IMG/VR virus record: IMGVR_UViG_2651869781_000017
Span: 1-51,682 of that record
Length of the DNA stretch: 51,682 nt
Source: a virus
Lineage: Duplodnaviria; Heunggongvirae; Uroviricota; Caudoviricetes
Reading direction: 5' to 3' (one strand)
Position numbers and translations under genes: made by a program. This document shows, piece by piece, positions 1,369 to 51,682 of this stretch. The notes under the pieces are model-generated. The model saw only the letters and a program-made list of their open reading frames with translations, did no database searches and was not told where the DNA came from. How positions within the stretch are numbered: the first letter of the stretch is position 1; every line of letters starts with the position of its first letter.

Positions 1369-1444
1369 GCCGATATAGCTCAGTTGGTAGAGCAGCGCAT
1401 TCGTAATGCGAAGGTCGGAGGTTCGACTCCTCTTATCGGCACCA
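1369..1444 (+). tRNA. thrW: tRNA-Thr (anticodon CGT)
   Basis: 76-nt sequence GCCGATATAGCTCAGTTGGTAGAGCAGCGCATTCGTAATGCG...GGCACCA with cloverleaf-compatible arms and CGT anticodon; immediately 3' of proA. Confidence 0.9.
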
Positions 1445-19361: not shown

Positions 19362-19981
19362 GACTCGAAAGCGTAGCTAAATTTCATTCGCCAAAAAGCC
19401 CGATGATGAGTGACTCACCACGGGCCACGGCTTCTGACTCTCTTTCCGGTACTGATGTGATGGCTGCTATGGGGATGGCGCAATCACAAGCCGGATTCGG
19501 CATGGCTGCATTCTGTGGTAAGCACGAACTCAGCCAGAACGACAAACAAAAGGCTATCAACTATCTGATGCAATTTGCACACAAGGTATCGGGGAAATAC
19601 CGTGGTGTGGCAAAGCTTGAAGGAAATACTAAGGCAAAGGTACTGCAAGTGCTCGCAACATTCGCTTATGCGGATTATTGCCGTAGTGCCGCGACGCCGG
19701 GCGCAAGATGCAGAGATTGCCACGGTACAGGTCGGGCGGTTGATATAGCCAAAACGGAGCAGTGGGGGAGAGTTGTTGAGAAAGAGTGCGGAAGATGCAA
19801 AGGTGTCGGCTATTCAAGAATGCCAGCAAGCGCCGCATATCGCGCTGTAACGATGCTAATCCCAAACCTTACTCAACCCACCTGGTCACGCACTGTTAAG
19901 CCGCTGTATGACGCTCTGGTGGTGCAATGCCACAAAGAAGAGTCAATCGCAGACAACATTTTGAACGCGGTCACACGTTAG
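19358..19981 (+). CDS. Q: late-gene antiterminator Q (lambda type)
   Basis: 207 aa; translation near-identical to lambda Q as remembered. Confidence 0.9.
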   Translation: MRLESVAKFHSPKSPMMSDSPRATASDSLSGTDVMAAMGMAQSQAGFGMAAFCGKHELSQNDKQKAINYLMQFAHKVSGKYRGVAKLEGNTKAKVLQVLATFAYADYCRSAATPGARCRDCHGTGRAVDIAKTEQWGRVVEKECGRCKGVGYSRMPASAAYRAVTMLIPNLTQPTWSRTVKPLYDALVVQCHKEESIADNILNAVTR

Positions 19982-29657: not shown

Positions 29658-31076
29658 ATGCCGATTCAGCAACTTCCGCTTATGAAAGGTGTCGGCAAAG
29701 ACTTCCGAAACGCCGACTATATCGACTATCTGCCAGTGAATATGCTGGCTACACCCAAAGAAATTCTCAACAGCAGCGGATATCTTCGCTCATTCCCGGG
29801 CATTGCCAAACGCTCTGATGTGAACGGTGTATCGCGCGGCGTCGAGTACAACATGGCGCAGAGTGCTGTTTATCGCGTGTGTGGTGGCAAACTGTACAAA
29901 GGAGAAAGCGAGGTTGGTGATGTCGCCGGAAGTGGTCGTGTATCAATGGCGCATGGTCGGACATCACAGGCGGTAGGCGTTAATGGTCAACTGGTCGAGT
30001 ATCGCTATGATGGTACGGTTAAAGCCGTCTCAAACTGGCCTACAGACAGTGGATTCACTCAGTATGAGTTAGGTTCAGTTCGCGACATTACGCGCTTACG
30101 TGGGCGTTATGCGTGGTCAAAAGACGGAACTGATTCATGGTTTATCACTGACCTTGAAGACGAATCGCATCCTGACCGTTACAGTGCACAATATCGCGCA
30201 GAATCGCAGCCGGACGGCATCATCGGCATCGGAACATGGCGAGATTTCATCGTCTGCTTTGGTTCATCGACGATTGAATATTTCTCCCTGACTGGTGCAA
30301 CCACTGTTGGTGCCGCGTTGTATGTCGCACAGCCATCGCTGATGGTGCAAAAAGGCATCGCCGGAACTTACTGCAAAACGCCGTTTGCTGATTCTTATGC
30401 ATTCATCAGCAATCCGGCAACAGGTGCGCCGTCTGTATACATCATCGGTTCCGGTCAGGTATCACCAATCGCCAGCGCGAGCATTGAGAAAATACTACGC
30501 TCCTACACTGCTGATGAACTGGCTGATGGTGTGATGGAATCGTTGCGGTTTGATGCGCATGAGCTGCTGATTATTCACCTGCCGCGCCACGTCCTCGTAT
30601 ACGACGCATCTTCAAGATCCAATGGTCCGCAATGGTGTGTGCTGAAAACAGGCCTGTATGACGATGTGTACCGCGCTATCGACTTCATTTACGAAGGCAA
30701 TCAGATAACGTGCGGAGATAAGCTGGAGTCCGTGACCGGGAAATTGCAGTTCGATATCAGCAGCCAGTACGACAAGCAGCAGGAACACCTGCTGTTTACT
30801 CCGTTGTTCAAAGCGGATAACGCCAGAGTATTTGACTTTGAGGTTGAATCGTCAACTGGCGTTGCGCAGTATGCTGACCGCCTTTTTCTCTCTGCAACCA
30901 CTGACGGCATCAATTACGGGCGTGAGCAGATGATTGAGCAGAATGAACCGTTCGTTTACGACAAACGCGTTTTGTGGAAGCGTGTCGGGCGCATCAGGAA
31001 AAATGTCGGTTTCAAATTGCGCGTTATCACGAAGTCACCTGTCACTCTGTCAGGTTGCCAGATAAGGATTGAGTAA
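29658..31076 (+). CDS. tail hub protein (gp10-like)
   Basis: 472 aa, same length as P22 gp10; synteny. Confidence 0.75.
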
Positions 31077-31777
31077 TGGCTGATTCGAATCTCAATACAC
31101 CTGTTATTGTGCAGGCGACGCGGCTCGATACATCAATCCTTCCACGCAATATATTCAGCCAGTCTTACCTGCTGTATGTCATTAATCAGGGGGCTGATGT
31201 CGGCGCAATTGCCGGGAAGGCAAATCAGGCTGGTCAGGGCGCTTACGATGCTCAGGTGAAAAACGATGAACAGGACGTCGAACTGGCAGATCACGATTCA
31301 AGAATCACCGCAAACACAAAAGCGATAAATCTCCTTGAGGTCAGGTTAACAACCGCCGAAGGGAAGATAGTCGTACTGCGTAGCGATGTTGATTACTTGC
31401 TGGATGAGGTTATCGATATTCAGGCGCATCTGGTCACTGTTGACCAAAGACTGGATGACGTAGAAAACGATGTCTCTGGCATTAAGAGTGATTACGTATC
31501 GAAAACCGTAACCGAATTGCAGTCTCTTGCGTCACCGCTGGATGTAAAAACATCATATTCAGTTGATGGAATTCAGGTTGTTGGAGCAAGAAATACCGGA
31601 TGGACTGCAGCCACAGGTACACCTCTTCTTGGCTCATTCAACGCTAACCAGTCATACACGGTCGGCACTACGTACACACAATCCGAAGTCGCAGCTATCG
31701 CTACAGGTTTGGAGCAGGCGCGGCAGCGTATTCTGGCGCTTGAAACAGCACTTAGATTACATGGGCTGATTGACTGA
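31076..31777 (+). CDS. tail needle (gp26-like)
   Basis: 233 aa; N-terminus [36 protein letters not shown]... matches P22 gp26. Confidence 0.85.
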
Positions 31778-32232
31778 TGATTACATTCAAACCAACACGA
31801 AACATCGACCTGATAGAAGCCGTGGGAAATCACCCCGACATTATCGCTGGTAGCAACAACGGTGATGGATACGACTACAAGCCTGAATGCCGTTACTTTG
31901 AGGTTAACGTGCACGGTCAGTTTGGCGGCATTGTTTACTATCAGGAGATTCAGCCGCTTACATTCGATTGCCACGCCATGTACCTGCCAGAGGTTCGTGG
32001 ATTCAGCAAGGAAATCGGGCTGGCGTTCTGGCGATACATTCTGACTAACACCACCGTTCAGTGCGTCACATCGTTCGCTGCACGCAAATTCCGCCACGGT
32101 CAGATGTATTGCGCAATGATTGGCCTTAATCGTGTAGGAACCATCAAGAAATACTTCAAAGGCGTGGATGACGTGACGTTTTACAGCGCCACACGCGAAG
32201 AACTAATCGACTTCCTGAATCACGGGAGATAG
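31777..32232 (+). CDS. gp14-like virion protein
   Basis: 151 aa; synteny between needle and ejection proteins. Confidence 0.55.
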   Translation: MITFKPTRNIDLIEAVGNHPDIIAGSNNGDGYDYKPECRYFEVNVHGQFGGIVYYQEIQPLTFDCHAMYLPEVRGFSKEIGLAFWRYILTNTTVQCVTSFAARKFRHGQMYCAMIGLNRVGTIKKYFKGVDDVTFYSATREELIDFLNHGR

Positions 32233-37927: not shown

Positions 37928-38025
37928 TTCGCTTGGATGCGGCAAAGAAATCAAAACAGTGAAGCCCCAACTGCGGGAACAGTCAGGGCTTCGGTATCGT
38001 AAAACCACGCATAGGAATTAACGAC

Positions 38026-39049: not shown

Positions 39050-41179
39050 ATGACAGATATCACCGCAAATGTTGTGGTAAGCATGCCTTCGCAACTCTTC
39101 ACTATGGCTCGTTCTTTTAAAGCCGTAGCTAATGGCAAAATTTATATCGGAAAAATTGACACTGACCCGGTAAATCCAGGAAACCAGATCCAGGTTTATG
39201 TGGAGAACGAAGATGGCTCTCATGTTCCTGTTTCGCAACCAATCATCATTAACGCTGCCGGATATCCGGTATATAACGGACAGATTGCCAAATTCGTTAC
39301 CGTGCAAGGCCATTCTATGGCTGTTTATGATGCATATGGTGCGCAGCAGTTTTATTTTCCTAATGTGTTGAAGTATGATCCTGATCAGTTTAGTTTGAAG
39401 CTATCCATGCCTGATGGGGCAGGTGAAATTGGATATCAATATAGAAATAATGTTACATCTTCTTACCGAAGAGTAAACGACAAGCTTGATGAGCATGTCA
39501 GTATTCTGGATTTTCATAGAAATGTTGATGGTGGGTTAATCCTTCCTGCACAGAATGTTGATAGTAGACCATTCTTTGAGCGAGCACTTGTATACATTGA
39601 ATCAATAGGCGGTGGCACTATTTATGTACCGGCTGGAAAATACTATTTAAATTCATACAGTGAAATAGGGATCATAGGCACTGTCTTTAATGCAATATTG
39701 CCACTTTGCGATAATGTTAAAATTTTATTGGATACAGCGGCAGAAATAGTTGTCGGTACTTTTTTTGATGACAAGCCTTTCCAGTTGTTTTTTGGTTCTT
39801 CGCCTTTGAAACCAAATCTTGTAGACGCTGTAAATAATGTTGTCATAGAAGGTGGTACAATTAGCTTTAGTGGTTATAGCAGTATGATGAGAACAGCACC
39901 ACTAAACAGAATTGCATTGCAGACAGGAAATATAGATAATCTTCGCATATCAAATGTTACCTTTCGTGATGGTGACTTAACAAACGCTTTAGCGATAGGA
40001 TACAAAAATCTAGGCAAATATGCAGTTGTTGAGAATTGCAACTTTATTGACCTTATTCAGAACGGAATGAATAACGATCATAGTAGTATCTACCTTAATG
40101 CGTCACACTCTACAATTAATAATTGCAACTTTATTTCCACGATAGATAAAGGAAGGAAGATCGCTTGTGCTGTTGAGTTGCATAAATCTTTCAATAGTTG
40201 GATTGGTGGTAATGTTGATGGCTATACACGTGGTGCTTTTATAAACGCTATTGATACTGAATCATCTCTTGTAGAAAACACCAGAATTGAATCAGTTACC
40301 GCTAGAATACTACACCAGTTTGTAGCGTACTCGTTCGGTTCTAATGGGGTTATAAGAAATAGTCTTGTTTCAGGAAATAATGTAACAACTCTTGCGAGAA
40401 GTTCATCCGATACAGATCCTTCAGAATTTGGACCTTGCAGTCTCTGCGGTTGGGTGTCATATGGTAGTTTTGCAAATGCAGAAGGCCTAAATATCGTAGT
40501 TGAAAATAATACATACATTGTTGATGAATCAGTACAAGATTCATATAGTTGCGTATTTTATGCAATCGCAAATGTTTCAGGTGTTACTGTTCGTAGAAAC
40601 AGTGTTGGAGCGAGAACTTTTTTCTACAACCCAACCCCATCACTAAATCTTTACAATTGCCATTTTTATGAAAACAGGTTTGAGGAATCGTATGTACAGA
40701 GCGGTTCAGAAAGATTTTTATATGATCTTAACTGTAATCGTATTTCTCAAAGCACTTTCGAAGCATTTGTTCCAATAAAAACAACTGCACTGACAGGAGT
40801 TATGAGGATTGACCCATCTACGCTCGGTCCGCAGAATCGTTTTGTTGTCGATACTCAGAATACAGATAATATTGAACACCCATTTATTACAAATTTGCCA
40901 GGTTTGCTCGGGCAGGATGGTACAACTTACTCATATCCGCAAAAATGCGATGTCAACATCGGAGTTGGTTCTACACCTGTCCTATCTGTGATAAGTCCGG
41001 AAATAAGCACTGTAGACAGAGGACAGATTCTTAACAACGCGAACCTTCCATCTGGTTATGTCGCTCCGTCGTCGTTAATGAAGTACGATTCTACGCTTAC
41101 AGGAGCTGGTGTCACAGTATCAGGGACGCCATCCGGTAATTATCATGACGTGAGGATTCTACTGATAAGAGAACGTTAG
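39050..41179 (+). CDS. tailspike protein (P22-type N-terminal head-binding domain plus distinct receptor-binding domain)
   Basis: N-terminal 110 aa [34 protein letters not shown]...VLKYDPDQ matches P22 gp9 head-binding domain; rest diverges. Confidence 0.88.
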
Positions 41180-41392: not shown

Positions 41393-41439
41393 ATTCGTAA
41401 TGCGAAGGTCGGAGGTTCGACTCCTCTTATCGGCACCAT
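41393..41439 (+). repeat. attR: duplicated 3' 47 bp of thrW
   Basis: Exact copy of 1399-1445; lacks the tRNA 5' half so it is not a functional tRNA. Confidence 0.85.
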
Positions 41440-42263
41440 CAAGAAAATCAATAACTTAGCTTAACTTCTCTAAGAAATTGTATCTTCTGTTATCACTTAC
41501 AAACGCCTATACGTTGTTATGGGCTTTTGGTAGTTTAACACGTATGGGCGAGTAGTTCCCAGGCTCAACCTCGTAACAAGTTCCTTTGAAGCTGGAAGAC
41601 GTGCCACCGTCTCTAAACCTTCTACCAAAACTCTTAGCAAGATGTTCCACACCTGGCGCGGTGTCCAATGATGCTACACGTCGTGAGACGTTGCAGAGGA
41701 TAAACAGGCTAAATGATGGGAAGAGTTTTAAGTGCAATAGTGGATTAAAGCCCACCTCTTCAAAACCTAACTTGATCGGGAAAGAATCAAGCTCTAGCAC
41801 GGTTTCGTCCACCGGAGTACAACGGGTGCCTGATAAGAGAAGAACTGCTAAGACTTCATAGCTTTTGTGAAAAAGCCCTTTTTAGTGGATACGCCTACGG
41901 CGCTTATTTTTTGGTATAACCATCAAAGGCGCTTTATGGCTCCTATTGTCTTGAAAATGTATCTTTACTTGTATTGTGTTTTATGCGTAGTCTCCCTGTG
42001 TAGTATGTAACTTGTTAATTTTCATATGAATACAGAGGCACACGATGAAAAACATTGCAGCTATCAAACGTAATAACCGCAAGATTCACGCTCGTAAGTT
42101 CCTGTCTACGCCAGAGGGAAAAGCCTGGCTAGAGCGTAAACAGCGAGAGAACGAAGAAAGAAAACTCCTTAGTGAGTTGAAATGGCTTAAGGATTGAATC
42201 ACCAGTAGGCGCATAACACATCCAGCGATCAAAGATGTGTTTATGCGCCTGATAGTGAAATTA

Positions 42264-42422
42264 TTAAAGTTTTTTAGTTAATGTAGCCATTGCATGAACG
42301 ATGATCGCTAGTGAATCGATTTTATCTCGAGGGGTAAAATAGATGAGGTATATGATGGTAACAATTACAGCTAAAGTAATTGTGGTTCTGCAGGTTTTTA
42401 AAATGGATGAGATAAAGCGCAT
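42264..42422 (-). CDS. small hydrophobic protein (52 aa)
   Basis: ORF with G-rich RBS; single hydrophobic helix (TITLAVIVTIIYLIYF). Confidence 0.3.
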   Translation of the reverse strand: MRFISSILKTCRTTITLAVIVTIIYLIYFTPRDKIDSLAIIVHAMATLTKKL

Positions 42423-42748
42423 AGATACCCCCTATTGATTTAACAATAGCAAAGTATCATTTATTTTTTATTGCACGCAACATGCAAATTTTCACATATA
42501 ATAGTTTACTATTCACTTTGTATGGTGTCAACAAGATGATGTGTTGTTTTGTTTGATTTGTTCAAGATAATGTTTCATTTTCTCATCTATATAACTTGTG
42601 TTTTAGATAATTTCACTAATTGTAAAAGTTACGTATTGCTTAATAGCTACCTTTTTATCTGAAATCGGCGCAGACGTGATCAATGTTTAACGCGAAGATC
42701 AGCGGCGTCAGGTCCACGCAGCGACAATTCTCAAATATCAAGGAGGCA

Positions 42749-43288
42749 TTACGCCTCCTCTTCTTCCTTCTTGATACGTTGCACCGTTGAAGGAGCAACA
42801 TTAAAGCTCTCGGCGGTTTTACGCACTGACAGGCCATCAGAAAGGGCTTTCTTTATACCTTCTCGATCCACTGCTTTTCCATTACCACGTTTTGTAGGAT
42901 TGACGGCTTGCGCTTCTCGTTTACGTTCTAACATCAGTTCACGTTCACACGTTGCAACTGCCGACAACATCGTAAGCATCATCTTTCCCATCGCGCTTGT
43001 AATGTCTGCAATGATTCCTTCTTTGTGAAATCGAACAATTACACCTCGATTATTAAGTTGTTCAACTAAAGCAAGGATGTCTAAGGTGTTACGTCCTAAA
43101 CGGTCGAGAGAGTGCACGTGTAAGGTGTCGCCTTCTCTCAGATAGGCTAAACACGCTTGTAAGCCTGGGCGGTTAGTGTCTTTACCAGACAGCTTATCTT
43201 CAAAGACTTTATCGAGAGTTACTCCTGCAAGCTGGCGATCAGTGTTCTGATCTACAGTGCTCACACGCTTATAACCGATATTGCTCAT
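42749..43288 (-). CDS. small serine recombinase (resolvase/invertase family)
   Basis: 179 aa; catalytic N-terminus GYKRVSTVDQNTDRQ, LDRLGRN motif, C-terminal HTH. Confidence 0.85.
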   Translation of the reverse strand: MSNIGYKRVSTVDQNTDRQLAGVTLDKVFEDKLSGKDTNRPGLQACLAYLREGDTLHVHSLDRLGRNTLDILALVEQLNNRGVIVRFHKEGIIADITSAMGKMMLTMLSAVATCERELMLERKREAQAVNPTKRGNGKAVDREGIKKALSDGLSVRKTAESFNVAPSTVQRIKKEEEEA

Positions 43289-43940
43289 AAAATCCTCTTA
43301 ATGTGTCGATTTGGCACTACTTCAATGCAAATGAGTATACCGTATTCATTTGGTCTGTTTCAAGCCTTATGGGTACGGAATATTACACGATTTAGCTGTA
43401 TTCATTTGGTATGCCTAATGGATACACAGGGGGATAGATTAAATGTTGTTCTGTTTATACAGGTTTATTTGTTAGATCAACAATTTGGCATTTCTAAACA
43501 GATGTTTGAACGTTGCCAAATGTCTTGACAACACAAGAAAAGGGCTTGCTATGCCACGCATTACACGAAATAAGGCTATAAAAACAAAATAAATTTTAAA
43601 ATTTGCACAAACGAGAGAACTCATTCGACAAATAATAGATTAATTTTTAGCCAACAATTTATGATGGTGCTCTGTAAGCCGCACTACACAAGGATTTGCG
43701 AAAGTGATGTAAAAGTGAAGAAAGTGAGAATTGCCCTTTTAAGCTACTTTTTCATTGAATTTTTAGTATGGAATTACACAGGGAATAGAGAGCATTATTC
43801 TATGATTTACACAGGGAATATAGGGGGATTATGGCACACACATAGAAAGGCATTACACAGAGTGCTATGTGACAAATGGATGTAACGAGAGGTTACATTC
43901 AGCTATCTGAAATGCTCTCTGTAAGAAAGTTGGTAGTAAC

Positions 43941-44052
43941 GGTAGGTCACTGTGAACTAGGGGGGGTAGTTCACTATGAGCTAGGGGGGTAGTTCACTAT
44001 GAGCTAGGGGGTAGGTCACTGTGAACTAGGGGGTAGGTCACTGTGAACTACA
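43941..44052 (+). repeat. five tandem 22-24 bp iterons (GGTAGGTCACTGTGAACTAGGG family)
   Basis: Five direct repeats in two sequence variants, followed by an A/T-rich tract with a (TA)n run near 44100-44127. Confidence 0.8.
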
Positions 44053-45152
44053 ATAAGACTATTAATAAAACTATATTAGATTATTAATTAGATCATAATA
44101 ATAATATTCTTTATATCTATATATATATATATGATCTTTTGCCTTTCGGCGTTAGCTCCACTCTCTGGCAAGCAGCCTTACTCCGCTACCTTTCGGGCTA
44201 CGTTGGCTGGCCTCGTTCCGCTCACACCGAAAGCAAAGCGTTACTTTCTTCGTGTAACTATCGTTGGCGATAACGCCCACGAAGAAATACTATTGCGCTG
44301 TGCGCAGTAAGAGTAATCACCTAACCAATCATACTGATTGCTTACGTGTTAACTCTATCTCTCTACCTCGTAATTACCCTCCTACACTTAATAACTCTCG
44401 TTATTCTCTGTAGTTGTGTAATTACTCGAAGAGAGAGCGGCTAAAGCTCAATTACACTCTGCTTTCCTCGTGTAATTTCACTAAGCCTCAATACAATTCC
44501 ACTTCCTACATTCTGTAGTCGTGTAATTGTTTTCGGTGGAAAAGCCAGAGGCGACACCGAAAGAGAATTCTGATCTTATTAATCTTATCTATCTTAGTTA
44601 ATCTTCTTACTTACTTTATCTACTTTATTATTAATAATAGCTTTATAAGCTCTCTGTAGCTCTCTGACGCAAGAAACAGCATTCAGGAAGGGAATCACCT
44701 TAGAAAAGTGTTCTTTGCGTCATAATGTGTTTTATGAAGGATTCAGAGGTGTTTCATAACAGGAGTGTATAGAGGATACTTTAATTAATTAAAAATAAGG
44801 GGTCTAAATGCTTCTCTAACAGCATTAAGCAGGGTAGGGAATGGAAACGCATTGCCTACATATATAAGCTCACTACAGGGCTTTACAGAGCGTTTTATAA
44901 AGTGACTCTCTATCTTATATCTACCATTACCTTTTCATATACCTAACAAATACAAAATAAGCCCCTTAAATAAGCCTCTGGCGAGCTAAACAGCCATTAG
45001 ATAAGGGAATGTATTGCTTTTATCAAAATCTCGTTAGAACGCGTTTTAGAGCGTTTTAGCGGATAATGAAGAATAGCACTACACAGAAGAGCACGAATTG
45101 CTAAGAAAAAATGTAAGTGCATGAAAAAGATCAGATTTTTTGTGAAAAGGTA

Positions 45153-45181
45153 TTGACAAATGTTTCTTTATATGTAATAAT
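45153..45181 (+). promoter_or_regulatory. sigma70-like promoter (TTGACA, 17 bp, AATAAT) upstream of 45292 operon
   Basis: Consensus -35 with 17-bp spacer to an A/T -10 hexamer. Confidence 0.45.
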
Positions 45182-45291
45182 AGGTATTAGAGGGACAGAA
45201 AAACATTCTTCTCTAAATAATCAAAATCAATGCACTTTGAAGCCGTCAGGCTTGCAAGGTGTTTTTCTTTTAACTGAATAAGGAGTTTTTT

Positions 45292-45480
45292 ATGAAATGG
45301 TTTACACCGGAACACGTCGTCGCGGCATTTAAAAAAGGTGAGCTAACACGCCACCAAGTAGTAATGAATCGTAATATGGCAAGGAGTCGAGGTTATCCAG
45401 AGCGTGAAAAATGTTTCGATGCAGCACTAAAAATTATTGATGAACTAAGAAAAAATGAAAAAGAATCTGAAACAGAGTAA
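45292..45480 (+). CDS. hypothetical small protein (62 aa)
   Basis: ORF with AGGAG RBS. Confidence 0.4.
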   Translation: MKWFTPEHVVAAFKKGELTRHQVVMNRNMARSRGYPEREKCFDAALKIIDELRKNEKESETE

Positions 45481-45499
45481 AGAATAGAAGGAGAAAACT

Positions 45500-45667
45500 A
45501 TGAGCGAAACTAAGAAACCAATTCCGCGCACTTACCTACACGTTGACCCTGAAATCTTCAAGGTTTTATTTGCTGAAGCCAAGAAAAGGCAAATTATGGT
45601 CAGTGATTTGATGTTAGAAATCATTACTGAAGCAGCAGAGAACATCAAACAAAAAAAGGGTAAGTGA
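45500..45667 (+). CDS. putative ribbon-helix-helix DNA-binding protein (55 aa)
   Basis: Beta-strand then two helices pattern (RTYLHVDPEIFKVLFAEAKKRQIMVSDLMLEII); GGAG RBS. Confidence 0.4.
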   Translation: MSETKKPIPRTYLHVDPEIFKVLFAEAKKRQIMVSDLMLEIITEAAENIKQKKGK

Positions 45668-45718
45668 TCCTCATTCACTTTAGTAGCGCATTAAGCGTGA
45701 TTTATAAGGAGATTTTTA

Positions 45719-46411
45719 ATGATTAATCAACTAACTTTTACAAAACACTATGACACGTTTGATAATGTATCAAAGATTTATTCTGATAAATTCCCTCAAG
45801 GAAAAGATTTAGATCTATTACATATTGTGCTTTATTTTCGATTCCTTAGTTATCAGGAAAACAACCTTAATTGTTATGAAAGTCACGAAACATTAGCTAA
45901 GATTTTTAAGTCTTCAGCGTCAACAATTAAACGTAAGATAAACGATCTTAAAGAGATGGGATTATTAGAAACATCCCCACATCCTGATCCGTATATTTCA
46001 TCTTTGATTTACAATGCTCTCCCTCTCACAGATGCACATATTACTCCCCCAGGAGAATCATCACTCTCTGATCTTTCTGAGGCAGAAGAAGCACAGGAAC
46101 AACCTAAAGGCCATAAACAGCCTTCTTTTGATGTTCTTGATGATGATTGGGATACGCCTTTACCCTGGGAGACGGAAGAAACACCTGTTTCATCAAGTGA
46201 AAAGGTAGCTAATGATAATGAGGAGGATGTGTTAGAGAATTTTGCCTCTCTTATCATCCAGGAGAAGACTACAAGAACAGGAGGGGCATCATTTATTGAG
46301 TTTGCAAATTCACTAGCTTATAGACACGGGCTAAAACGACCAAATGGTATTGAGGCATATTTTTCTAAGCATTACCCAAATGTGTATGAAGACTTTGATA
46401 TTCCATTTTAA
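45719..46411 (+). CDS. hypothetical protein with N-terminal HTH and acidic linker (possible replication or regulatory protein)
   Basis: 230 aa; HTH-like segment (HETLAKIFKSSASTIKRKINDLKEMGLL); AGGAG RBS. Confidence 0.4.
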   Translation: MINQLTFTKHYDTFDNVSKIYSDKFPQGKDLDLLHIVLYFRFLSYQENNLNCYESHETLAKIFKSSASTIKRKINDLKEMGLLETSPHPDPYISSLIYNALPLTDAHITPPGESSLSDLSEAEEAQEQPKGHKQPSFDVLDDDWDTPLPWETEETPVSSSEKVANDNEEDVLENFASLIIQEKTTRTGGASFIEFANSLAYRHGLKRPNGIEAYFSKHYPNVYEDFDIPF

Positions 46412-46422
46412 TAAGGAGGGTT

Positions 46423-46701
46423 ATGATTCAATATTTAGTAAAAAATCAAGTAGACAGAATTCAGTGTAATGACACAGGAAAACGCATCTACGAAACACTT
46501 GCTTACCTCTATAAAGGAAAGCCAACACCGCTAAAATATAGCGATGTGTTACACCGAGCAGGGTGCTCTGAAGATGGTTTAAAATTCTGGCTGAAACAGC
46601 TATCAAATTTCGGTGTTATAGAGATTAAAGAATTATCTTTCTCTACATTCAATCTCAAAAGACTGGATAAAGAAATAGTATTCATCTATTCCACTCTCTA
46701 A
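46423..46701 (+). CDS. hypothetical protein (92 aa), possible winged-helix
   Basis: ORF with GGAGGG RBS. Confidence 0.35.
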   Translation: MIQYLVKNQVDRIQCNDTGKRIYETLAYLYKGKPTPLKYSDVLHRAGCSEDGLKFWLKQLSNFGVIEIKELSFSTFNLKRLDKEIVFIYSTL

Positions 46702-46833
46702 AATCTCTCTATGTAATTAAAATATAAAAGGAAAACATTATTATGATAGTAGCTATGTATTGGTTATTGTTCTTTCTCACGTTAGAAACATATTTCGGGG
46801 TGTTTTCCTTTAAAAGAAAAGGAAAAGTAAATA

Positions 46834-47241
46834 ATGGCAAAAAGAAAAAACAACGTTGTTAAGAAAATCGGTGATTCAGCTTCTCTTCTAAGTAAACCTA
46901 AATCTATTCTAAGACGTAAAGACTTTAAAGAGCTAGTTACGCTCTCCAAGCAAAATAGCGCCCCTGGCGAATGGAAAACAGAGATCATAGAACATTCTCC
47001 CTCTGTGCCTTGTGGAGATGAATTTAACGCCTTACAAGAAATCTTATCTTCAACACCTGGCGTATTCTGGAAACCTAGAAAAAGAAAAGAGTATATTGTT
47101 GATAGCTCTGATTTACGCAAATACCAGATTTTAGGATTTGAAGACTATAACCACTACGTTGGTTATCTCGCCACCAATGGCCTAAATAATTTAGTTCCTG
47201 AATTCCATTTAGATAATGATGATCACTATGGAGACTTTTAA
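46834..47241 (+). CDS. hypothetical basic protein (135 aa)
   Basis: ORF with AAGGAAAAG RBS. Confidence 0.35.
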   Translation: MAKRKNNVVKKIGDSASLLSKPKSILRRKDFKELVTLSKQNSAPGEWKTEIIEHSPSVPCGDEFNALQEILSSTPGVFWKPRKRKEYIVDSSDLRKYQILGFEDYNHYVGYLATNGLNNLVPEFHLDNDDHYGDF

Positions 47242-47242
47242 T

Positions 47243-47578
47243 ATGAACAAAAACACGTATGACACAATTTATTCACTAATTAATTATTATGAGGATGATT
47301 ACCTCCTGCCTTTAAACCGTGCTGAACTTGAAGCACACAAAAACTCCACGCCAGCGGCACTAAATGAGGCGTTTAAACACTGGGATTTAGCTGTGAATGC
47401 CTTTGAGATGCTCTGTAAGCGTGTAGAGATGCTCTGTAAGCGTGAAAACGCATACCTGACAGCCGATCAGATATGGGAGCTATCAAACTGGATAGAAGAT
47501 ATTGAATCTGATGTTCGCTATGTGGGAGATGGCCTTATCGAACTCGCTCAACGCTTAGCTGTTATCACAGAAGAATAA
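47243..47578 (+). CDS. hypothetical protein (111 aa) containing a 21-bp tandem duplication
   Basis: ORF contains in-frame direct repeat GAGATGCTCTGTAAGCGTG x2 (EMLCKRVEMLCKRE). Confidence 0.35.
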   Translation: MNKNTYDTIYSLINYYEDDYLLPLNRAELEAHKNSTPAALNEAFKHWDLAVNAFEMLCKRVEMLCKRENAYLTADQIWELSNWIEDIESDVRYVGDGLIELAQRLAVITEE

Positions 47579-47607
47579 AAAAAGCAACAAAAAAGTTGTA
47601 AAATATC

Positions 47608-47636
47608 TTGACATTTCATCTATTGTATGTTAATAT
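47608..47636 (+). promoter_or_regulatory. near-consensus sigma70 promoter (TTGACA, 17 bp, TAATAT)
   Basis: Exact -35 consensus, 17-bp spacer, strong -10; upstream of 47922-49540 gene block. Confidence 0.55.
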
Positions 47637-47921
47637 AATTATATAGGGTGATTATTTTTCCTTTATTGGTTCGATATTAAAAATTCTTCTTGTCGTTAAA
47701 GGGGAGTAAAATCTCCGCTCCCCGCTTCTCCTCCTCCTTAAGTGTCATTATTACCTCTTTTTTCCTTTGTTATGCATACATCTTGGAGTATGCATAACAT
47801 AGGGTAATTACATAGGTACAAGTTAATAAAAGGCGGCTCTAAATGCTGCCTTTTATTTTGCCCGTTATACAACTTAAAAGTTGTATTTCTTACTTTAAAC
47901 AAGGTAACAAGGTTTATATAA

Positions 47922-48134
47922 ATGTTGTTCTTAAATGATAAAGAGCAAATCATCAAGTATCGCGATGAAATGCTAAAGATCAATCCACAAATTACCGAAA
48001 TGGTAGCTAAATACGCTGGGTGTTCTGTCGAGGAAGTAGAAAGATGTGTTGAAAAATATTTTTCTCCTTCTTCTCCGTCTACACCTTCCCTTAATGAATT
48101 AATCAAATTAAAAGCTAAGGAGATTACTAAATGA
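47922..48134 (+). CDS. hypothetical protein (70 aa)
   Basis: ORF; stop overlaps next gene start. Confidence 0.35.
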   Translation: MLFLNDKEQIIKYRDEMLKINPQITEMVAKYAGCSVEEVERCVEKYFSPSSPSTPSLNELIKLKAKEITK

Positions 48135-48493
48135 TTATTGATTTAGACACTCTGTTTCCAGTTCGAAAGACTTTCACAGATATTGTAAGTTATTGTACTG
48201 ATCCGTTTGCCTCTGTAGAAAACAAGGTTTTTGCTTCTCTTCCTGCTGATGTTGAATGCGGAGACTTGATCACCAGCACTGGCGCTAAATATGTATCAGG
48301 AGATGATATCTATGTTGTTATGAGTGAATTTGTAACGGCTGGAGACAACAAGCCTGTAGATGTGCTACGTAGCAATGCTGGTCTTGTCTGCATCAAAGCT
48401 GATGCGCTGAATGCTGTAAGTGAAGCAGCAAAAACAGCATTAATTAAAAAAGGCTTCCAGCTTGAAGGCTTCCACTCTGTTTTCACTTCTTAA
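48131..48493 (+). CDS. hypothetical protein (120 aa), possible virion accessory or decoration protein
   Basis: ORF immediately upstream of capsid-like gene. Confidence 0.3.
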   Translation: MIIDLDTLFPVRKTFTDIVSYCTDPFASVENKVFASLPADVECGDLITSTGAKYVSGDDIYVVMSEFVTAGDNKPVDVLRSNAGLVCIKADALNAVSEAAKTALIKKGFQLEGFHSVFTS

Positions 48494-48511
48494 TAAAAGG
48501 AATAATAATAA

Positions 48512-49540
48512 ATGATTCTAGGTAATGATTACGTTGATTTAGCTCCTTTGTTCTCTGCGCATAGCACTAGAAACTATCTGCTTTCTACTCTCGACTTCAC
48601 TGATCCGGTGGGCGTTAGTTCTCATAAAGTAGCTGTTTCCCAGCTTGTCGAAAGCAACGAATCTCTCTTTAACAAAGAGACAAGCCGTTTTAGTTCTGAA
48701 CACAATGTTACTAAGCGAGAACAAGGTAAAGAATGGCTGATTGAAATCCCTTACTTCCTGCGTGAAGATGTGATCCGTCCTTCTGATGTTCAAGGCAAAC
48801 GTAAACCTGGCACTGATTTTCAGGAAACACTCACTGATATTTATGCTGACTATGTTGCTAAACACCACGTAGCGTATCAGCGCACTAAAGAAAGCGTATT
48901 GGCTGCATCTCTGTTTAGCGGTAAAACTTACACGCCTAAAACTGATGATGTGTTAATTGAGTGGGGCAAGCTGTTTAACGTATCAGCTATGAAAGCCACT
49001 GTGAACGCTTCCAGCACTGACACCACGAAGATTTTTAAAGAATTTGATCAGATTGCTACTGACATTATCGAGAAAGCACAAAGCCAGGCGGCTGCTGTAG
49101 AGCGTATTGTTGTTTTCTGTAAGCCGGAAGCCTTCTCTGCAATTCGATTCTCTGCGGGTATGGCAAACGCATTCCAGTATGTAAGCCCACTGGAAGAAGG
49201 GAACGTTGTGTATCAGCGTCGTGACCTGCTACCAGGAGTGACAGCGTTCACTATTCCAGGAACTAACATTGATGTTATTAAACTGGTAGATCCGCTACAC
49301 CTTGCACATATGACCGCTGACGCTGTAGCCGTGCCTAAATTCGCTAAAGGCTCTAACGTCTACCAGGCCATCTATGGGGCGGCTTCCAGCACCTTTGAAC
49401 TGATCAATGCCGCTCCTGCTGAGGTTTACAGCTACAGCTATGAATCTTCTCGTGGTGATGCTGTTAACGTTGTTACAGAGAATAGCCAGATGGTTGTAAA
49501 CCACGGTGTAGGCTTCTCCGTTCAAATCACTGTTAAATAA
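48512..49540 (+). CDS. putative major capsid protein (possible T7 gp10-like, HK97 fold)
   Basis: 342 aa; local resemblance to T7 gp10A (ours RIVVFCKPEAFSAI versus T7 RVFYCDPDSYSAI) and similar length; from memory only. Confidence 0.4.
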   Translation: MILGNDYVDLAPLFSAHSTRNYLLSTLDFTDPVGVSSHKVAVSQLVESNESLFNKETSRFSSEHNVTKREQGKEWLIEIPYFLREDVIRPSDVQGKRKPGTDFQETLTDIYADYVAKHHVAYQRTKESVLAASLFSGKTYTPKTDDVLIEWGKLFNVSAMKATVNASSTDTTKIFKEFDQIATDIIEKAQSQAAAVERIVVFCKPEAFSAIRFSAGMANAFQYVSPLEEGNVVYQRRDLLPGVTAFTIPGTNIDVIKLVDPLHLAHMTADAVAVPKFAKGSNVYQAIYGAASSTFELINAAPAEVYSYSYESSRGDAVNVVTENSQMVVNHGVGFSVQITVK

Positions 49541-49625
49541 TATTTAACGTGTAATAGAGGCGTGGCGTGTATTCACGCTTCGCCTTTTTTTTATTTATTT
49601 TTAAATTTTGAGAGGTGATTAAAAT

Positions 49626-49829
49626 ATGGAAGTGATTCTGAAATCAAAAAATGGTGTCCACGTACATTTAGATGCTAATGATTCTAGAGGCTTGTTAAAT
49701 CTGAAATATCTATGTTCTCTCTTAGATGTTCCATATGAAGGAGTAAAAGCCCGTATGTTCAGACTAAACGAGAGTATTGATCAGGCTCTACACCATTTCT
49801 TAAGTAAAGAAGGTGGTAAAAATGATTAA
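49626..49829 (+). CDS. hypothetical small protein (67 aa)
   Basis: ORF between capsid-like gene and large downstream ORF. Confidence 0.3.
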   Translation: MEVILKSKNGVHVHLDANDSRGLLNLKYLCSLLDVPYEGVKARMFRLNESIDQALHHFLSKEGGKND

Positions 49830-49843
49830 TAAGGGGATTTTAA

Positions 49844-51682
49844 ATGTTAGAAATTAACACTTCTAAAATTAAGAACACAGTTACATTTAGTGTAGATAAA
49901 GACAGCTTGAAAAAAGCGAAAGACTCTATTACAGGCTTAAAGGAATTCGCAGAAAATATCAAGCCTGCTAAATTAAGATTTGATACTGTCACTAAAGGCT
50001 ATAAGAAAGCACAAAGTGAAGTAGATAAGATTGCTCAACAGAAAGCGAAAAACGAAAAACAGAATCAAAGAGCACAAGCTGCCGCAGCAAGAGCACAGGC
50101 AAGGCAACAGCAACAAATAGCAGCACGTAAGGAGAAAGCTGAACTAAAGCTTTTAGACGTTGGATCAAGCATTAGTGCAATGCACCGTCTTTCTGTAGCT
50201 GAACAATACAAAGCTATTGCACAGGCTAGAGAGATAGCAAAACAATATGAGCAAGGGGCTATCTCGCTTGCACGTATGAATAGCCAGATGAAACGCTTAC
50301 AACAGCAACAACGTAAGATTAATGGCAACAGAAAAGCTCAATTAGCCCCCGTTAAGGGAGGATCAGGGAATTCCGCCACTATGGGCGCTCTGTTATTTGG
50401 AGGCGCTACGGCGGCTGCTGGCGTGATGGCTGTAAGTAAAACCGCCGAGTTTGTTAGTAAAAGTTTCGCTAACGCAGAGACACAAGGAGAATTAATCCAA
50501 CGTGCAAGGCTTGGCGGTGTAGACGTTAACCAGATGTATAACATTACAGAATGGGCGTATAAAAACGGCGTTGACTCTATGATGGGTGATCAAGGGGCTA
50601 GAAAATACCTGGATCAGATGAAAGATGTTAGGGAACGTGCTACCAAATCTTATGACGAGGCTGAATATGTAGTTGATAAGAAAACAGGGAAAGGCATATG
50701 GAAAGGCGGTGATAACGGTATTAATGAACTTCTAAACATCGGTGTTATTAACAAAAGCGACCTTAAAAAATTTGCTGATAATCCAGCCGGATTAATTTCT
50801 AAGGCTGTTAATGGAATGATGAAAAAAGGGTTTTCAGATTCTCAAATTGGACAACGTTTAGAAGACCTGGGCGATGATTTGATGCTTACGTCAAAATATT
50901 GGCAACGTTCCGTTAAAGATGTACAAGAAAGTATTAATCAGCAAAAAGCCTCTGGAAAATGGCTAACAGAAACACAGCAAGACTCTATCGTTAAATTCAG
51001 AGAACTAAACAGACAGCTTTCGCAGCTTTCTGATGCAAGACAAGTAGCATTTGTAGACGGGTTTATGAAATCTCTCGATCCAAAAGTAACGGAAGAGTTT
51101 TTGAAAAACCTTTCTAATCTCACTCCGTATTTTACGAAGCTGGGAGAAGCTACAGGAAGTCTCTTTGAAGCTATTATGAAGATTGTAAACTGGTTTAATC
51201 GTAATGATGATAAGACAGAGGCTATTCAGAAAAATTTAGGTGATGCACCGCCATTAAGCAATGAAGGAATGAAACAGAATCTTTCTAATCTCGTTCCTGA
51301 CCAATATAAAGGCGCTGGCACTGCAACAACTACACCTGATAATAGTCATTCTCTCTTTAACACGATTAAGGGATTGCTTTTCGATGATAAATCTTCTGTG
51401 TCAGATGTAAAAATGTCAGTCAGCGAAGCACCGATAACCAATCTCAAACAGGGTGCTTTAAATAATCTTGCAATGACAACTCCGGCTTATAATTTATCTC
51501 CTGTATTCAATCTGAATCCGACATTTGAAGTGGTAACGGAGGTTCCGCTTACTATTAATTCTGACACGTCCAGATTAAGCGATTATGTGGATTTTACAGC
51601 GAGAGCAAGTCGGGATAGCTTCTTGAAATCATTAACATTAACCAGCTTATCAGGACAATCTAACGGCGGGGAATTCCCGCCA
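49844..51682 (+). CDS. large coiled-coil protein, 3'-truncated by window end (at least 613 aa)
   Basis: Open frame from ATG 49844 to window end with no stop (absent from ORF track because no stop); Q/A/R-rich coiled coil then Gly/Ala hydrophobic segment. Confidence 0.5.
   Translation, partial: MLEINTSKIKNTVTFSVDKDSLKKAKDSITGLKEFAENIKPAKLRFDTVTKGYKKAQSEVDKIAQQKAKNEKQNQRAQAAAARAQARQQQQIAARKEKAELKLLDVGSSISAMHRLSVAEQYKAIAQAREIAKQYEQGAISLARMNSQMKRLQQQQRKINGNRKAQLAPVKGGSGNSATMGALLFGGATAAAGVMAVSKTAEFVSKSFANAETQGELIQRARLGGVDVNQMYNITEWAYKNGVDSMMGDQGARKYLDQMKDVRERATKSYDEAEYVVDKKTGKGIWKGGDNGINELLNIGVINKSDLKKFADNPAGLISKAVNGMMKKGFSDSQIGQRLEDLGDDLMLTSKYWQRSVKDVQESINQQKASGKWLTETQQDSIVKFRELNRQLSQLSDARQVAFVDGFMKSLDPKVTEEFLKNLSNLTPYFTKLGEATGSLFEAIMKIVNWFNRNDDKTEAIQKNLGDAPPLSNEGMKQNLSNLVPDQYKGAGTATTTPDNSHSLFNTIKGLLFDDKSSVSDVKMSVSEAPITNLKQGALNNLAMTTPAYNLSPVFNLNPTFEVVTEVPLTINSDTSRLSDYVDFTARASRDSFLKSLTLTSLSGQSNGGEFPP

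Follow-up and report, generated by a model that had tools for sequence, protein, structure and literature searches.

What kind of element begins where a P22-like prophage ends in the virus record IMGVR_UViG_2651869781_000017, and does it depend on another phage? The window considered here is the whole of that stretch, 51,682 nucleotides in length, and it is a segment of an Escherichia coli chromosome. The tRNA-Thr(CGU) gene thrW is located at 1369-1444 and is followed by the prophage, which includes a sar RNA at 37958-38024 and a tailspike gene at 39050-41179. A sequence-only reading of this DNA had placed the attR of the prophage immediately before a second, AT-rich element, for which a phage satellite, an integrated phage-plasmid and a degraded prophage were all considered. 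The boundary is located as described, since exact 46-bp copies of the thrW 3' end flank the prophage (Table 1), and the GC content is 0.34-0.43 from 41 kb to the window end compared with 0.45-0.55 in the prophage. Of the three identities we favour the first. The element is likely to be a satellite of virulent myoviruses of the Stephanstirmvirinae, namely the phi92-like Justusliebigvirus and the phAPEC8-like Phapecoctavirus, an assignment drawn from sequence comparisons.

Extent of the element and its family

The window from 41420 to its end is the left ~10.2 kb of a ~12.5-kb integrative element at the 3' end of thrW, and the P22-like prophage is integrated into the tRNA-proximal att, between thrW and this element. 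In E. coli DSM 103263 (locus L001) the same sequence is found at 94.7% identity directly after thrW, with no intervening prophage. The order of features there is thrW, a 50-aa open reading frame (ORF), a recombinase, a 2-kb gap, small ORFs, a 'transcriptional regulator', further small ORFs, a major capsid protein, a 66-aa ORF, a 611-aa protein, a 237-aa 'baseplate protein' and a tyrosine integrase, followed by the host genes yagP and paoD. The block between the 20-bp repeats ACTCCTATTATCGGCACCAT at 19481 and 31988 of L001 measures 12,527 bp; the integrase (Pfam Phage_integrase) is encoded at 30567-31844 and attR is the repeat at 31988. The 20-bp att core, or the invariant right-end junction, recurs in 15 loci besides L001.

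It had been stated that no tyrosine integrase lies within the window, which is correct, and that an extension to the right might reveal an integrase and a second att repeat. Both are found by way of the syntenic DSM 103263 locus, from which the tube-initiator gene, the integrase (~0.9-2.2 kb past the window stop) and attR (~2.3 kb past it) are expected beyond the window end. The attL core lies in the window itself (Table 1); the integrase and attR are seen only in the 95%-identical L001.

A megablast search of the 10.2-kb region against 5426 complete E. coli genomes finds at least 80% of the region in 255 of them (~5%) and part of it in 766 (14%). Such recurrence shows that this is no chance arrangement. 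All but one of the 950 matching places are chromosomal (949), and the remaining one is on a plasmid.

Homologues of the capsid protein are found in E. coli, E. albertii, Citrobacter, Klebsiella, Enterobacter, Cronobacter, Kluyvera, Buttiauxella, Scandinavium, Leclercia, Dryocola, Sodalis and Serratia. A common gene order is observed at differing integration sites in Klebsiella, Serratia, Buttiauxella, Kluyvera, Citrobacter and Scandinavium. For example, the Klebsiella and Serratia members begin with a small recombinase, an ORF-poor stretch of at least 1 kb, small ORFs, an initiator and more small ORFs, and they continue with a ~120-aa gene, the capsid gene, a ~65-aa gene, a tape measure gene of ~615-630 aa and the integrase. 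At least eight genera share the minimal gene set and its order, and their capsid proteins can be as little as 37% identical. The family thus defined comprises integrative elements of Enterobacterales of roughly 11-14 kb.

Gene presence was counted in 35 family loci, and ratios of nonsynonymous to synonymous change (dN/dS) were computed pairwise among E. coli copies (Table 1). These ratios are 0.0-0.3 for most genes, with s120a reaching 1.05 in one comparison, and there are no premature stop codons. The integrase, which lies beyond the window, has values of 0.03-0.06. Together with the recurrence of the same reduced gene set in other genera, the low ratios indicate purifying selection and a maintained gene set rather than decay, and the degraded-prophage option of the sequence-only reading is not supported on these grounds.

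A family of this kind has been described before. Barth, Dunham and Seed (2023; PMC10448857) reported 224 putative satellites in E. coli and close relatives that are att-flanked and tRNA-adjacent, encode a tyrosine integrase and sometimes a serine recombinase, and carry capsid, decoration, tape measure and baseplate-hub genes without the signature genes of cfPICI satellites. Their Table S6, for a set defined by BLASTn, includes a 'Resolvase' column, and the N-termini of the RepA proteins are noted to be modular (PMC10448857). Window positions 41442-41696 are identical (255 of 255) to the start of a Table S6 element in E. coli FHI85 (LM996975.1), and the att string CGAGTGTTTTACTCCTATTATCGGCACCAT of that table is the right-end junction of L001 and 15 other loci. 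These matches place the window element in the family that was predicted by computer in 2023. The window copy differs from those elements by an initiator allele, type A, that has no phage nuclease counterpart in the phage collection searched.

The combination of resolvase, iteron origin and capsid gene without adjacent terminase or portal, which had been called unusual, is fairly so called with respect to PICI, cfPICI and P4 satellites, but this exact combination was reported as a putative satellite family in 2023 (PMC10448857). A match to a well-characterised element had been named as grounds for giving up the sequence-only reading. This applies by half, as the description of the family is so far a computational one that awaits experimental characterisation.

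Set beside the section of PMC10448857 that describes these elements, the present analysis adds a structured RNA, which that section does not mention, the relatives in Klebsiella, Serratia and other genera, and the relationship to phi92 gp124, gp134 and gp135. It further adds the co-variation of initiators and iterons, the dN/dS values, and several integration sites and initiator types beyond E. coli.

Virion genes, putative origin and phage nucleases

The element encodes a capsid protein and a tape measure protein in the window and a tail-tube initiator in L001, and no further virion genes are recognizable in it. The capsid-like protein had been recognized correctly by the sequence-only reading, as a Phage_cap_E match confirms (Table 1). 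The large coiled-coil protein is also present, and it can now be identified as a tape measure homologue that is cut by the window end. The tube initiator is the 237-aa protein of L001 (Pfam Dit_like 3.5e-29; dN/dS 0.03-0.12), and the tape measure homologue there is the 611-aa protein.

A tblastn search with the tape measure protein against 50,697 phage genomes matched 134 records, mostly Escherichia phages. The best-ranked matches listed are all Stephanstirmvirinae myoviruses of ~145-150 kb (Phapecoctavirus and Justusliebigvirus) and close Klebsiella relatives, and full-length capsid matches in phages are found only in phages of this same group. With Phapecoctavirus phiWec188, the tube initiator shares 53% identity (E = 5e-71), the tape measure 28% over its full length (E = 2e-56) and the capsid protein 22% over its full length (E = 6e-9). 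The corresponding phiWec188 proteins are the capsid and tape measure proteins of that phage itself and the product of the gene directly after the tape measure gene. The partners in phage PaulScherrer (Bas60) are annotated as 'major capsid protein', 'tail tape measure protein' and 'tail tube initiator protein', the last with 60% identity, and family profiles match this phage at 1.6e-14 (capsid), 7e-112 (tape measure) and 8e-100 (tube initiator). The best match of each protein in the PDB is a phi92 virion chain: gp135 for the tube initiator (2e-78), gp134 for the tape measure (6e-39) and gp124 for the capsid (1.9e-18). These three structural genes point to a helper from the phi92 group, independently of the argument from phage nucleases given below.

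Among the scanned proteins and in the PGAP annotation there is no terminase, portal, protease, tube, sheath, baseplate wedge, fibre, lysis, alpA, adaptor, Pri-Rep, primase or partition gene.

The second line of evidence comes from the replication module. A five-copy iteron array with a (TA)n tract had been noted in the window and is confirmed (Table 1). The accompanying ORF-poor stretch is also real, although it spans ~2 kb (43289-45291) and not 1 kb; PGAP annotates no gene there in L001. The initiator-like protein encoded downstream is named RepA in PMC10448857. Alignments among E. coli copies break at two places only, one in the iteron array and the other in the part of the initiator-like gene that encodes its N-terminal half. 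Three initiator alleles correspond one-to-one to three iteron sequences among copies that are otherwise 90-96% identical: the type A allele of the window (MINQLTF...) is found with iteron GGTAGGTCACTGTGAACTAGGGG, the MINEEQF... allele with ACAGAATTCTGTTAGACACCCCC and the MIKNIKT... allele with ACCTAGGAAATGAGTTCCTACCT. At least four initiator alleles exist among the E. coli copies, each with its own iterons where these are detected, indicating a modular N-terminal DNA-binding domain. The elements of other genera have unrelated initiators, including P-loop proteins of 482-497 aa. This co-variation of initiator and iteron provides the strongest evidence at hand that the array functions as an origin and that the protein encoded nearby recognizes it.

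In addition, TTACAC(A/G) motifs are located to the left of the iterons (43380-43860) and the inverse (C/T)GTGTAA motifs to the right (44250-44530), so that the putative origin lies between inverted groups of the motif, to which a regulator or a recombinase may bind.

The third line of evidence is a set of phage genes that resemble the replication module. A megablast search of the region against phages gives a match of 239 nt at 99.6% identity in Justusliebigvirus inny and muut. This match covers the small gene s55 (window 45488-45726; L003:4013-4195 in inny; L046:2513-2680 in muut). The s55 protein is identical to the product of muut gene 153 at 55 of 55 positions and to that of inny gene 185 at 53 of 53 positions over the aligned stretch, which indicates a very recent exchange. 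Next to the phage copy of s55 is inny gene 184, whose product has two HTH_36 (helix-turn-helix, HTH) domains and a C-terminal MUG113/T5orf172 domain of GIY-YIG type. The C-terminus resembles the homing endonucleases of T5-like phages.

Both DNA-binding domains of these phage proteins have close relatives among the initiators. In inny gene 184 (L003:4233-5336), residues 1-140 are 88% identical to one satellite allele and residues 160-251 are 91% identical to the MIKNIKT allele. In muut gene 154 (L046:2732-3730), the first domain is 65-69% identical to a Citrobacter-type allele and the second is 91% identical to the MIKNIKT allele. In the Mt1B1_P17 protein QNJ49226 (L047:2414-3400), the first domain is 99% identical over 105 aa to the MINEEQF allele and the second is 85% identical to the MIKNIKT allele. 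The MIKNIKT allele is represented by L023:7179-7910 and L030:6641-7309, and the second domains of the three nucleases are 83-91% identical to its N-terminus. Overall, initiator alleles B, C, D and G are mirrored in phage T5orf172 nucleases, and each nuclease may target two origin types.

The Odn-like proteins of Inny, Muut and Mt1B1_P17 were recognized previously, and their DNA-binding domains were traced to bacterial loci (PMC10448857). For the second DNA-binding domain, that study found no detectable satellite cognate. Contrary to this, the MIKNIKT allele appears to be such a cognate. The design of the three nucleases, in which initiator DNA-binding domains are joined to a T5orf172/MUG113 domain, is that of ICP1 Odn, a nuclease in which a domain 42% identical to a PLE RepA_N domain is fused to T5orf172 and which cuts the PLE origin at the iterons (PMC8263062).

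These observations suggest the following course of events. Infection by a phi92- or phAPEC8-like phage would induce excision of the element and its replication from the iteron origin. The capsid protein of the element, the probable decoration protein and small partners would then form a shell of a size fit for a 12.5-kb genome on the portal and packaging machinery of the helper. The tape measure and tube initiator of the element would replace those of the helper in contractile tails that are otherwise helper-made. Given that the tape measure is ~40-48 residues shorter than that of the helper, such tails would be slightly shorter. For PLE with ICP1, this chimeric-tail step has been demonstrated by experiment. 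The resulting particles would transduce the element at a cost to the helper. Perhaps the helper responds with nucleases directed at the origin, from which the element would escape by swapping its initiator and iteron modules.

Competing readings and known satellites

Several points weigh against a satellite of phi92-like phages. No member of the family has ever been seen to excise, replicate, be packaged or be transferred. The expected circular junction, CGAGTGTTTT-ACTCCTMTTATCGGCACCAT-CAAGAAAATC, gave no exact match in IMG/VR and metagenome contigs when searched as a 46-nt pattern with 45 specified bases and an exact match required, and the IMG/VR matches to the element come from isolate genomes in which a prophage region was called, rather than from virome particles. 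Nor has a packaging signal, a small terminase or a regulator that senses the helper been identified. Co-assembly with the portal and scaffold of the helper is uncertain because the capsid protein is only ~22% identical to that of the helper, and the tube initiator is missing from 13 of the 35 loci (present in 22). The 2-kb non-coding region has no meaningful similarity to any phage in distant BLASTN searches. For the window copy in particular, the type A initiator allele has no counterpart in the phage collection (best match 34% identity), and the link to an arms race is therefore one of the family and not of this copy. Furthermore, its right end lies outside the window, and its intactness is presumed.

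The alternative that best withstands the evidence is a resident anti-phage island that has ceased to travel in virions, or never did so, and in which the capsid, tape measure and tube-initiator homologues serve as dominant-negative decoys of phi92-like assembly, with the integrase and origin used for maintenance. We regard this as improbable, though not negligible. The few structural homologues present are exactly those that nucleate assembly, the counter-measures that phages aim at the origin show that the element harms them, and interference with tail assembly is known for satellites and prophages (PMC11364771; Rta in PMC12987554). That the searches yielded no circular junction or packaged form also fits an island of this type. 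However, a pure decoy would need no conserved integrase, no intact att at several sites and genera, and no swappable initiator-iteron module. Near-identical copies are found across unrelated E. coli lineages and hosts, which argues for horizontal transfer, and none of the ten scanned proteins from s50 to s120b falls convincingly in a known defence family according to PADLOC. Moreover, defence and satellite transfer are compatible, since PLE does both.

We give considerably less credence to a decayed remnant of an ordinary prophage once integrated at thrW. This tRNA gene is a hotspot with other cryptic prophages, such as CP4-6 in E. coli K-12, the head and tail genes are isolated, and some copies are interrupted by insertion sequence (IS) elements. 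Against it stand the gene set and order shared among genera, dN/dS values that are well below 1 for most genes without a premature stop, and structural genes that resemble those of virulent 150-kb myoviruses, which have no integrated state. CP4-6 itself uses the same thrW attachment site and likewise has its integrase at the distal end. Kinship with it was considered and rejected, as the two have neither DNA nor protein sequence in common outside the 59-bp att region.

Least probable of all is that the element is a phage-plasmid in its integrated form or a miniature virus that needs no helper. An iteron origin, an initiator-like protein and a resolvase-type recombinase are features of many plasmids. 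However, genes for partition, maintenance, toxin-antitoxin systems, conjugation and mobilisation are absent, the virion module is incomplete, only the one matching place is on a plasmid, and many copies lack the recombinase, which is cargo. An element without terminase, portal, tube, sheath and lysis genes cannot make particles alone.

A satellite of phi92-like helpers can be compared with several established satellite types. PLE has a size of about 18 kb, as opposed to 12.5 kb for the element described here. Their resemblance is functional, and for the present element it is read from genes alone. The PLE helper is likewise a virulent myovirus (ICP1), and PLE likewise has an iteron origin with modular initiator alleles, has to contend with an Odn counter-attack, and itself encodes a tape measure, a baseplate or tube-initiator protein and a gene in the chaperone position (PMC8263062, PMC12987554). 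In contrast to PLE, the present element has a tyrosine integrase at a tRNA gene and encodes its own major capsid protein, whereas PLE is reported to steal the ICP1 coat and to remodel it with TcaP. Experiments have shown that PLEs use a chaperone, a tape measure and a baseplate hub of their own to make chimeric tails, and other putative satellites also carry tape measure genes, with a predicted one in some cfPICI satellites (PMC12987554; its Extended Data Fig. 10). These examples make the tail genes of the present element less odd.

Like cfPICI satellites, the element is integrative and has its own major capsid protein, here of the Pfam Phage_cap_E family. Unlike them, it lacks alpA, Pri-Rep, portal, protease, head-tail adaptor and connector, and terminase or HNH genes. 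From the cfPICI core list (PMC10085698), only the integrase and the capsid protein are found, and tail genes are present in addition. With P4-like satellites the element shares an enterobacterial host, a length of ~11-12 kb, a location at a tRNA gene, its own replication functions and a variable cargo slot, but the helpers of P4 are temperate P2-like phages, and neither a capsid nor a tail protein is encoded by P4 itself. The proteins of the element have no Pfam or PHROG match to psu, delta, sid, the alpha primase-helicase or alpA.

The element lies outside what SatelliteFinder detects. Tail genes are forbidden components in that program, which would therefore reject it, and PLEs are found by the program only in Vibrio cholerae (PMC10085698). 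If the assignment is correct, a satellite of virulent phi92- and phAPEC8-like phages is common in E. coli and its relatives, and this pair would be a tractable E. coli counterpart of the PLE-ICP1 system of V. cholerae. Such phages are popular candidates for phage therapy and biocontrol, and a resident element that exploits or obstructs them, along with nucleases that overcome it, would affect both host-range prediction and the design of cocktails.

Candidate structured RNA and remaining features

In all 35 loci, s120a and s70 are separated by a gap without ORFs that lies upstream of the capsid operon. It measures 330-350 nt in the thrW type and 550-750 nt elsewhere. At its start is an extended -10 promoter close to the consensus (47608-47636), which other genera also conserve, and at its end a terminator hairpin (~47826-47856); the RNA would extend from ~47643 to 47862. 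This E. coli form, of ~220 nt, has a fold z-score of -5.4 and is almost invariant among copies.

There are 14 sequences available for the long form of the RNA (550-600 nt), which is found in other genera (for example, L010:8727-9370). For these, RNAalifold predicts 70 pairs, and of the 67 retained for counting, 27 exhibit compensatory double changes. Across the 67 pairs, 91.6% of cells are paired compared with 42-48% when the partners are slid, and none of 500 shuffles reaches the observed values. Rfam gives no relevant match at E ≤ 1 for the window region or for the Buttiauxella locus. When a long-form nhmmer profile is compared with the window, only the promoter and the 5' end align (E = 3.4), and homology to the short E. 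coli RNA beyond that part has not been demonstrated.

The structured RNA probably gates late-gene expression. One possibility is that it is an antitermination leader, or else a trans-acting regulator that senses helper infection. A more ambitious proposal, which we put forward tentatively and consider doubtful at present, is that these satellites supply both the capsid shell and the tail core, obtain the rest from a virulent 150-kb helper, and have their capsid operon gated by this previously undescribed structured RNA. If true, they would be the first known satellites that supply a capsid shell plus a tape measure and a tube initiator. A phage-specific promoter motif was also considered as a diagnostic feature and was rejected, since the phages and the element both use ordinary extended -10 sigma-70 promoters.

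Table 1. Features of the element and its left boundary in the window. Loci, number of the 35 family loci in which the gene is present.
Feature	Position	Strand	Loci	dN/dS	Details
46-bp thrW 3' repeat, attR of P22-like prophage	41393-41438	+			exact second copy at 1399-1444 inside tRNA-Thr
attL core of satellite-like element, ACTCCTCTTATCGGCACCAT	41420-41439	+			last 20 bp of the prophage attR repeat
Left-end non-coding segment	41442-42044				~98% conserved among E. coli copies
s50, 50-aa ORF	42045-42197	+	25	0-0.16	coding sequence in L001
Small serine recombinase (resolvase/invertase type), 179 aa	42749-43288	-		0.03-0.10	Pfam Resolvase 7.5e-34; C-terminal HTH; PHROG 'DNA invertase' 1e-54
Putative replication origin	43941-44135				five iterons of 22-24 bp at 43941-44055 (TRF score 155); AT-rich stretch; (TA)10 at 44112-44132
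Near-consensus extended -10 sigma-70-like promoter before s62-s55-initiator operon	45153-45181	+			TTGACA-17-AATAAT with TG; 11/12 matches; best site in region
s62, 62-aa core ORF	45292-45480	+	32	0.24-0.31	
s55, 55-aa ORF	45500-45667	+	20		ribbon-helix-helix (RHH)-like by eye
Replication-initiator-like DNA-binding protein, 230 aa, allele type A	45719-46411	+			HTH_36 24.3 bits, just below the 25-bit cut-off; replication-initiator PHROGs 2e-9
s92, 92-aa core ORF	46423-46701	+	31	0.17-0.30	possibly winged HTH
s135, 135-aa core ORF	46834-47241	+	35		
s120a, 120-aa ORF	47216-47578	+	29	0.25-1.05	
Promoter, candidate non-coding RNA or structured leader, intrinsic-terminator hairpin	47608-47862	+			upstream of capsid operon
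s70, 70-aa core ORF	47922-48134	+	33	0.10-0.19	
s120b, 120-aa ORF, probably head decoration protein	48131-48493	+	35	0.02-0.20	directly upstream of capsid gene as in phi92-like phages and lambda
Major capsid protein, 342 aa, lambda gpE / phi92 gp124 type	48512-49540	+	35	0.08-0.12	Phage_cap_E 4.7e-14
Intrinsic-terminator-like hairpin after capsid gene	49557-49590	+			nine-pair stem then T run; top terminator-like site in region
s67, 67-aa ORF in tail assembly chaperone position	49626-49829	+	35	about 0 (one comparison 0.26)	
Tape measure protein homologue	49844-51682	+	34	0.12-0.21	613 codons before window end; PHROG tape measure 1e-54

The gene s120b is labelled 'Dec' in these elements by PMC10448857. 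Its AlphaFold model, built from the family alignment, is unusable with a pLDDT of 52, and no Foldseek match is significant, the top one being lambda gpD with E = 0.3. A comparison with phage by hhalign gives a probability of 2%, and its profile finds nothing in a sequence search of the PDB. More generally, hhalign comparisons of the s120b, s67, s70, s135 and s120a profiles with 30 structural proteins of PaulScherrer give probabilities of at most 6%. A chaperone role for s67 is suggested by its position only, as it has no detectable similarity to phage chaperones.

Several small HTH or RHH proteins had been claimed by the sequence-only reading. This is borne out in part: the 230-aa protein has an HTH_36 match just below threshold and replication-initiator PHROG matches, and the 55-aa and 92-aa ORFs have RHH-like or winged-HTH-like appearances by eye only. 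The small ORFs, including these two, have no family match in Pfam or PHROGs. The PADLOC scan covered the ten proteins from s50 to s120b and gave only weak matches, to the HTH regions of the initiator-like protein plus one to s120a.

There are 387 clusters of the s135 family at 90% identity and they are mostly from Klebsiella, which suggests that this family is very abundant and fast-diversifying in that genus. An AlphaFold model of s135 made from the family alignment has a pLDDT of about 52-53 and is unusable. The gene s120a, the least constrained of the core genes by dN/dS, contains a perfect 21-nt tandem duplication at 47405-47444 that yields the peptide repeat VEMLCKR-VEMLCKR.

Conservation of the left-end segment extends to copies in which the capsid gene has just 73% identity. 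A variable cargo slot separates s50 from the origin (window 42198-43416; L018:3106-4923; L021:2791-4922; L005:2484-5083). In the window it holds the serine recombinase, which had been recognized correctly and has Resolvase and DNA invertase family matches. The slot holds a 183-aa signal-peptide or secreted protein in L018 and L030, an IS3 element in L021, and a small tyrosine recombinase in Klebsiella and Serratia, accompanied in Klebsiella by a Dam methylase. The idea that the invertase-type recombinase flips a segment was rejected, because all alignments among 17 E. coli copies are co-linear. An unannotated ORF of 52 aa, strongly hydrophobic, is located between s50 and the recombinase (42264-42422, minus strand), and could be a small membrane peptide or toxin, or noise.

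Tandem arrays at thrW are not confined to the window. Another prophage is located between the tRNA gene and the element in L020, L021, L023, L028 and L032 as well, and further unrelated sequence follows the attR of the element in L020, L023, L025 and L026. In these arrays the satellite-like element is always distal to the incoming prophage. The acceptor/T-arm region of thrW itself differs by a compensatory pair between the window and DSM 103263, with GGTCGGAGG...CCTCTT at window 1405-1440 and GGTCGTAGG...CCTATT at L001:19460-19495, and both repeats of the window have the first version.

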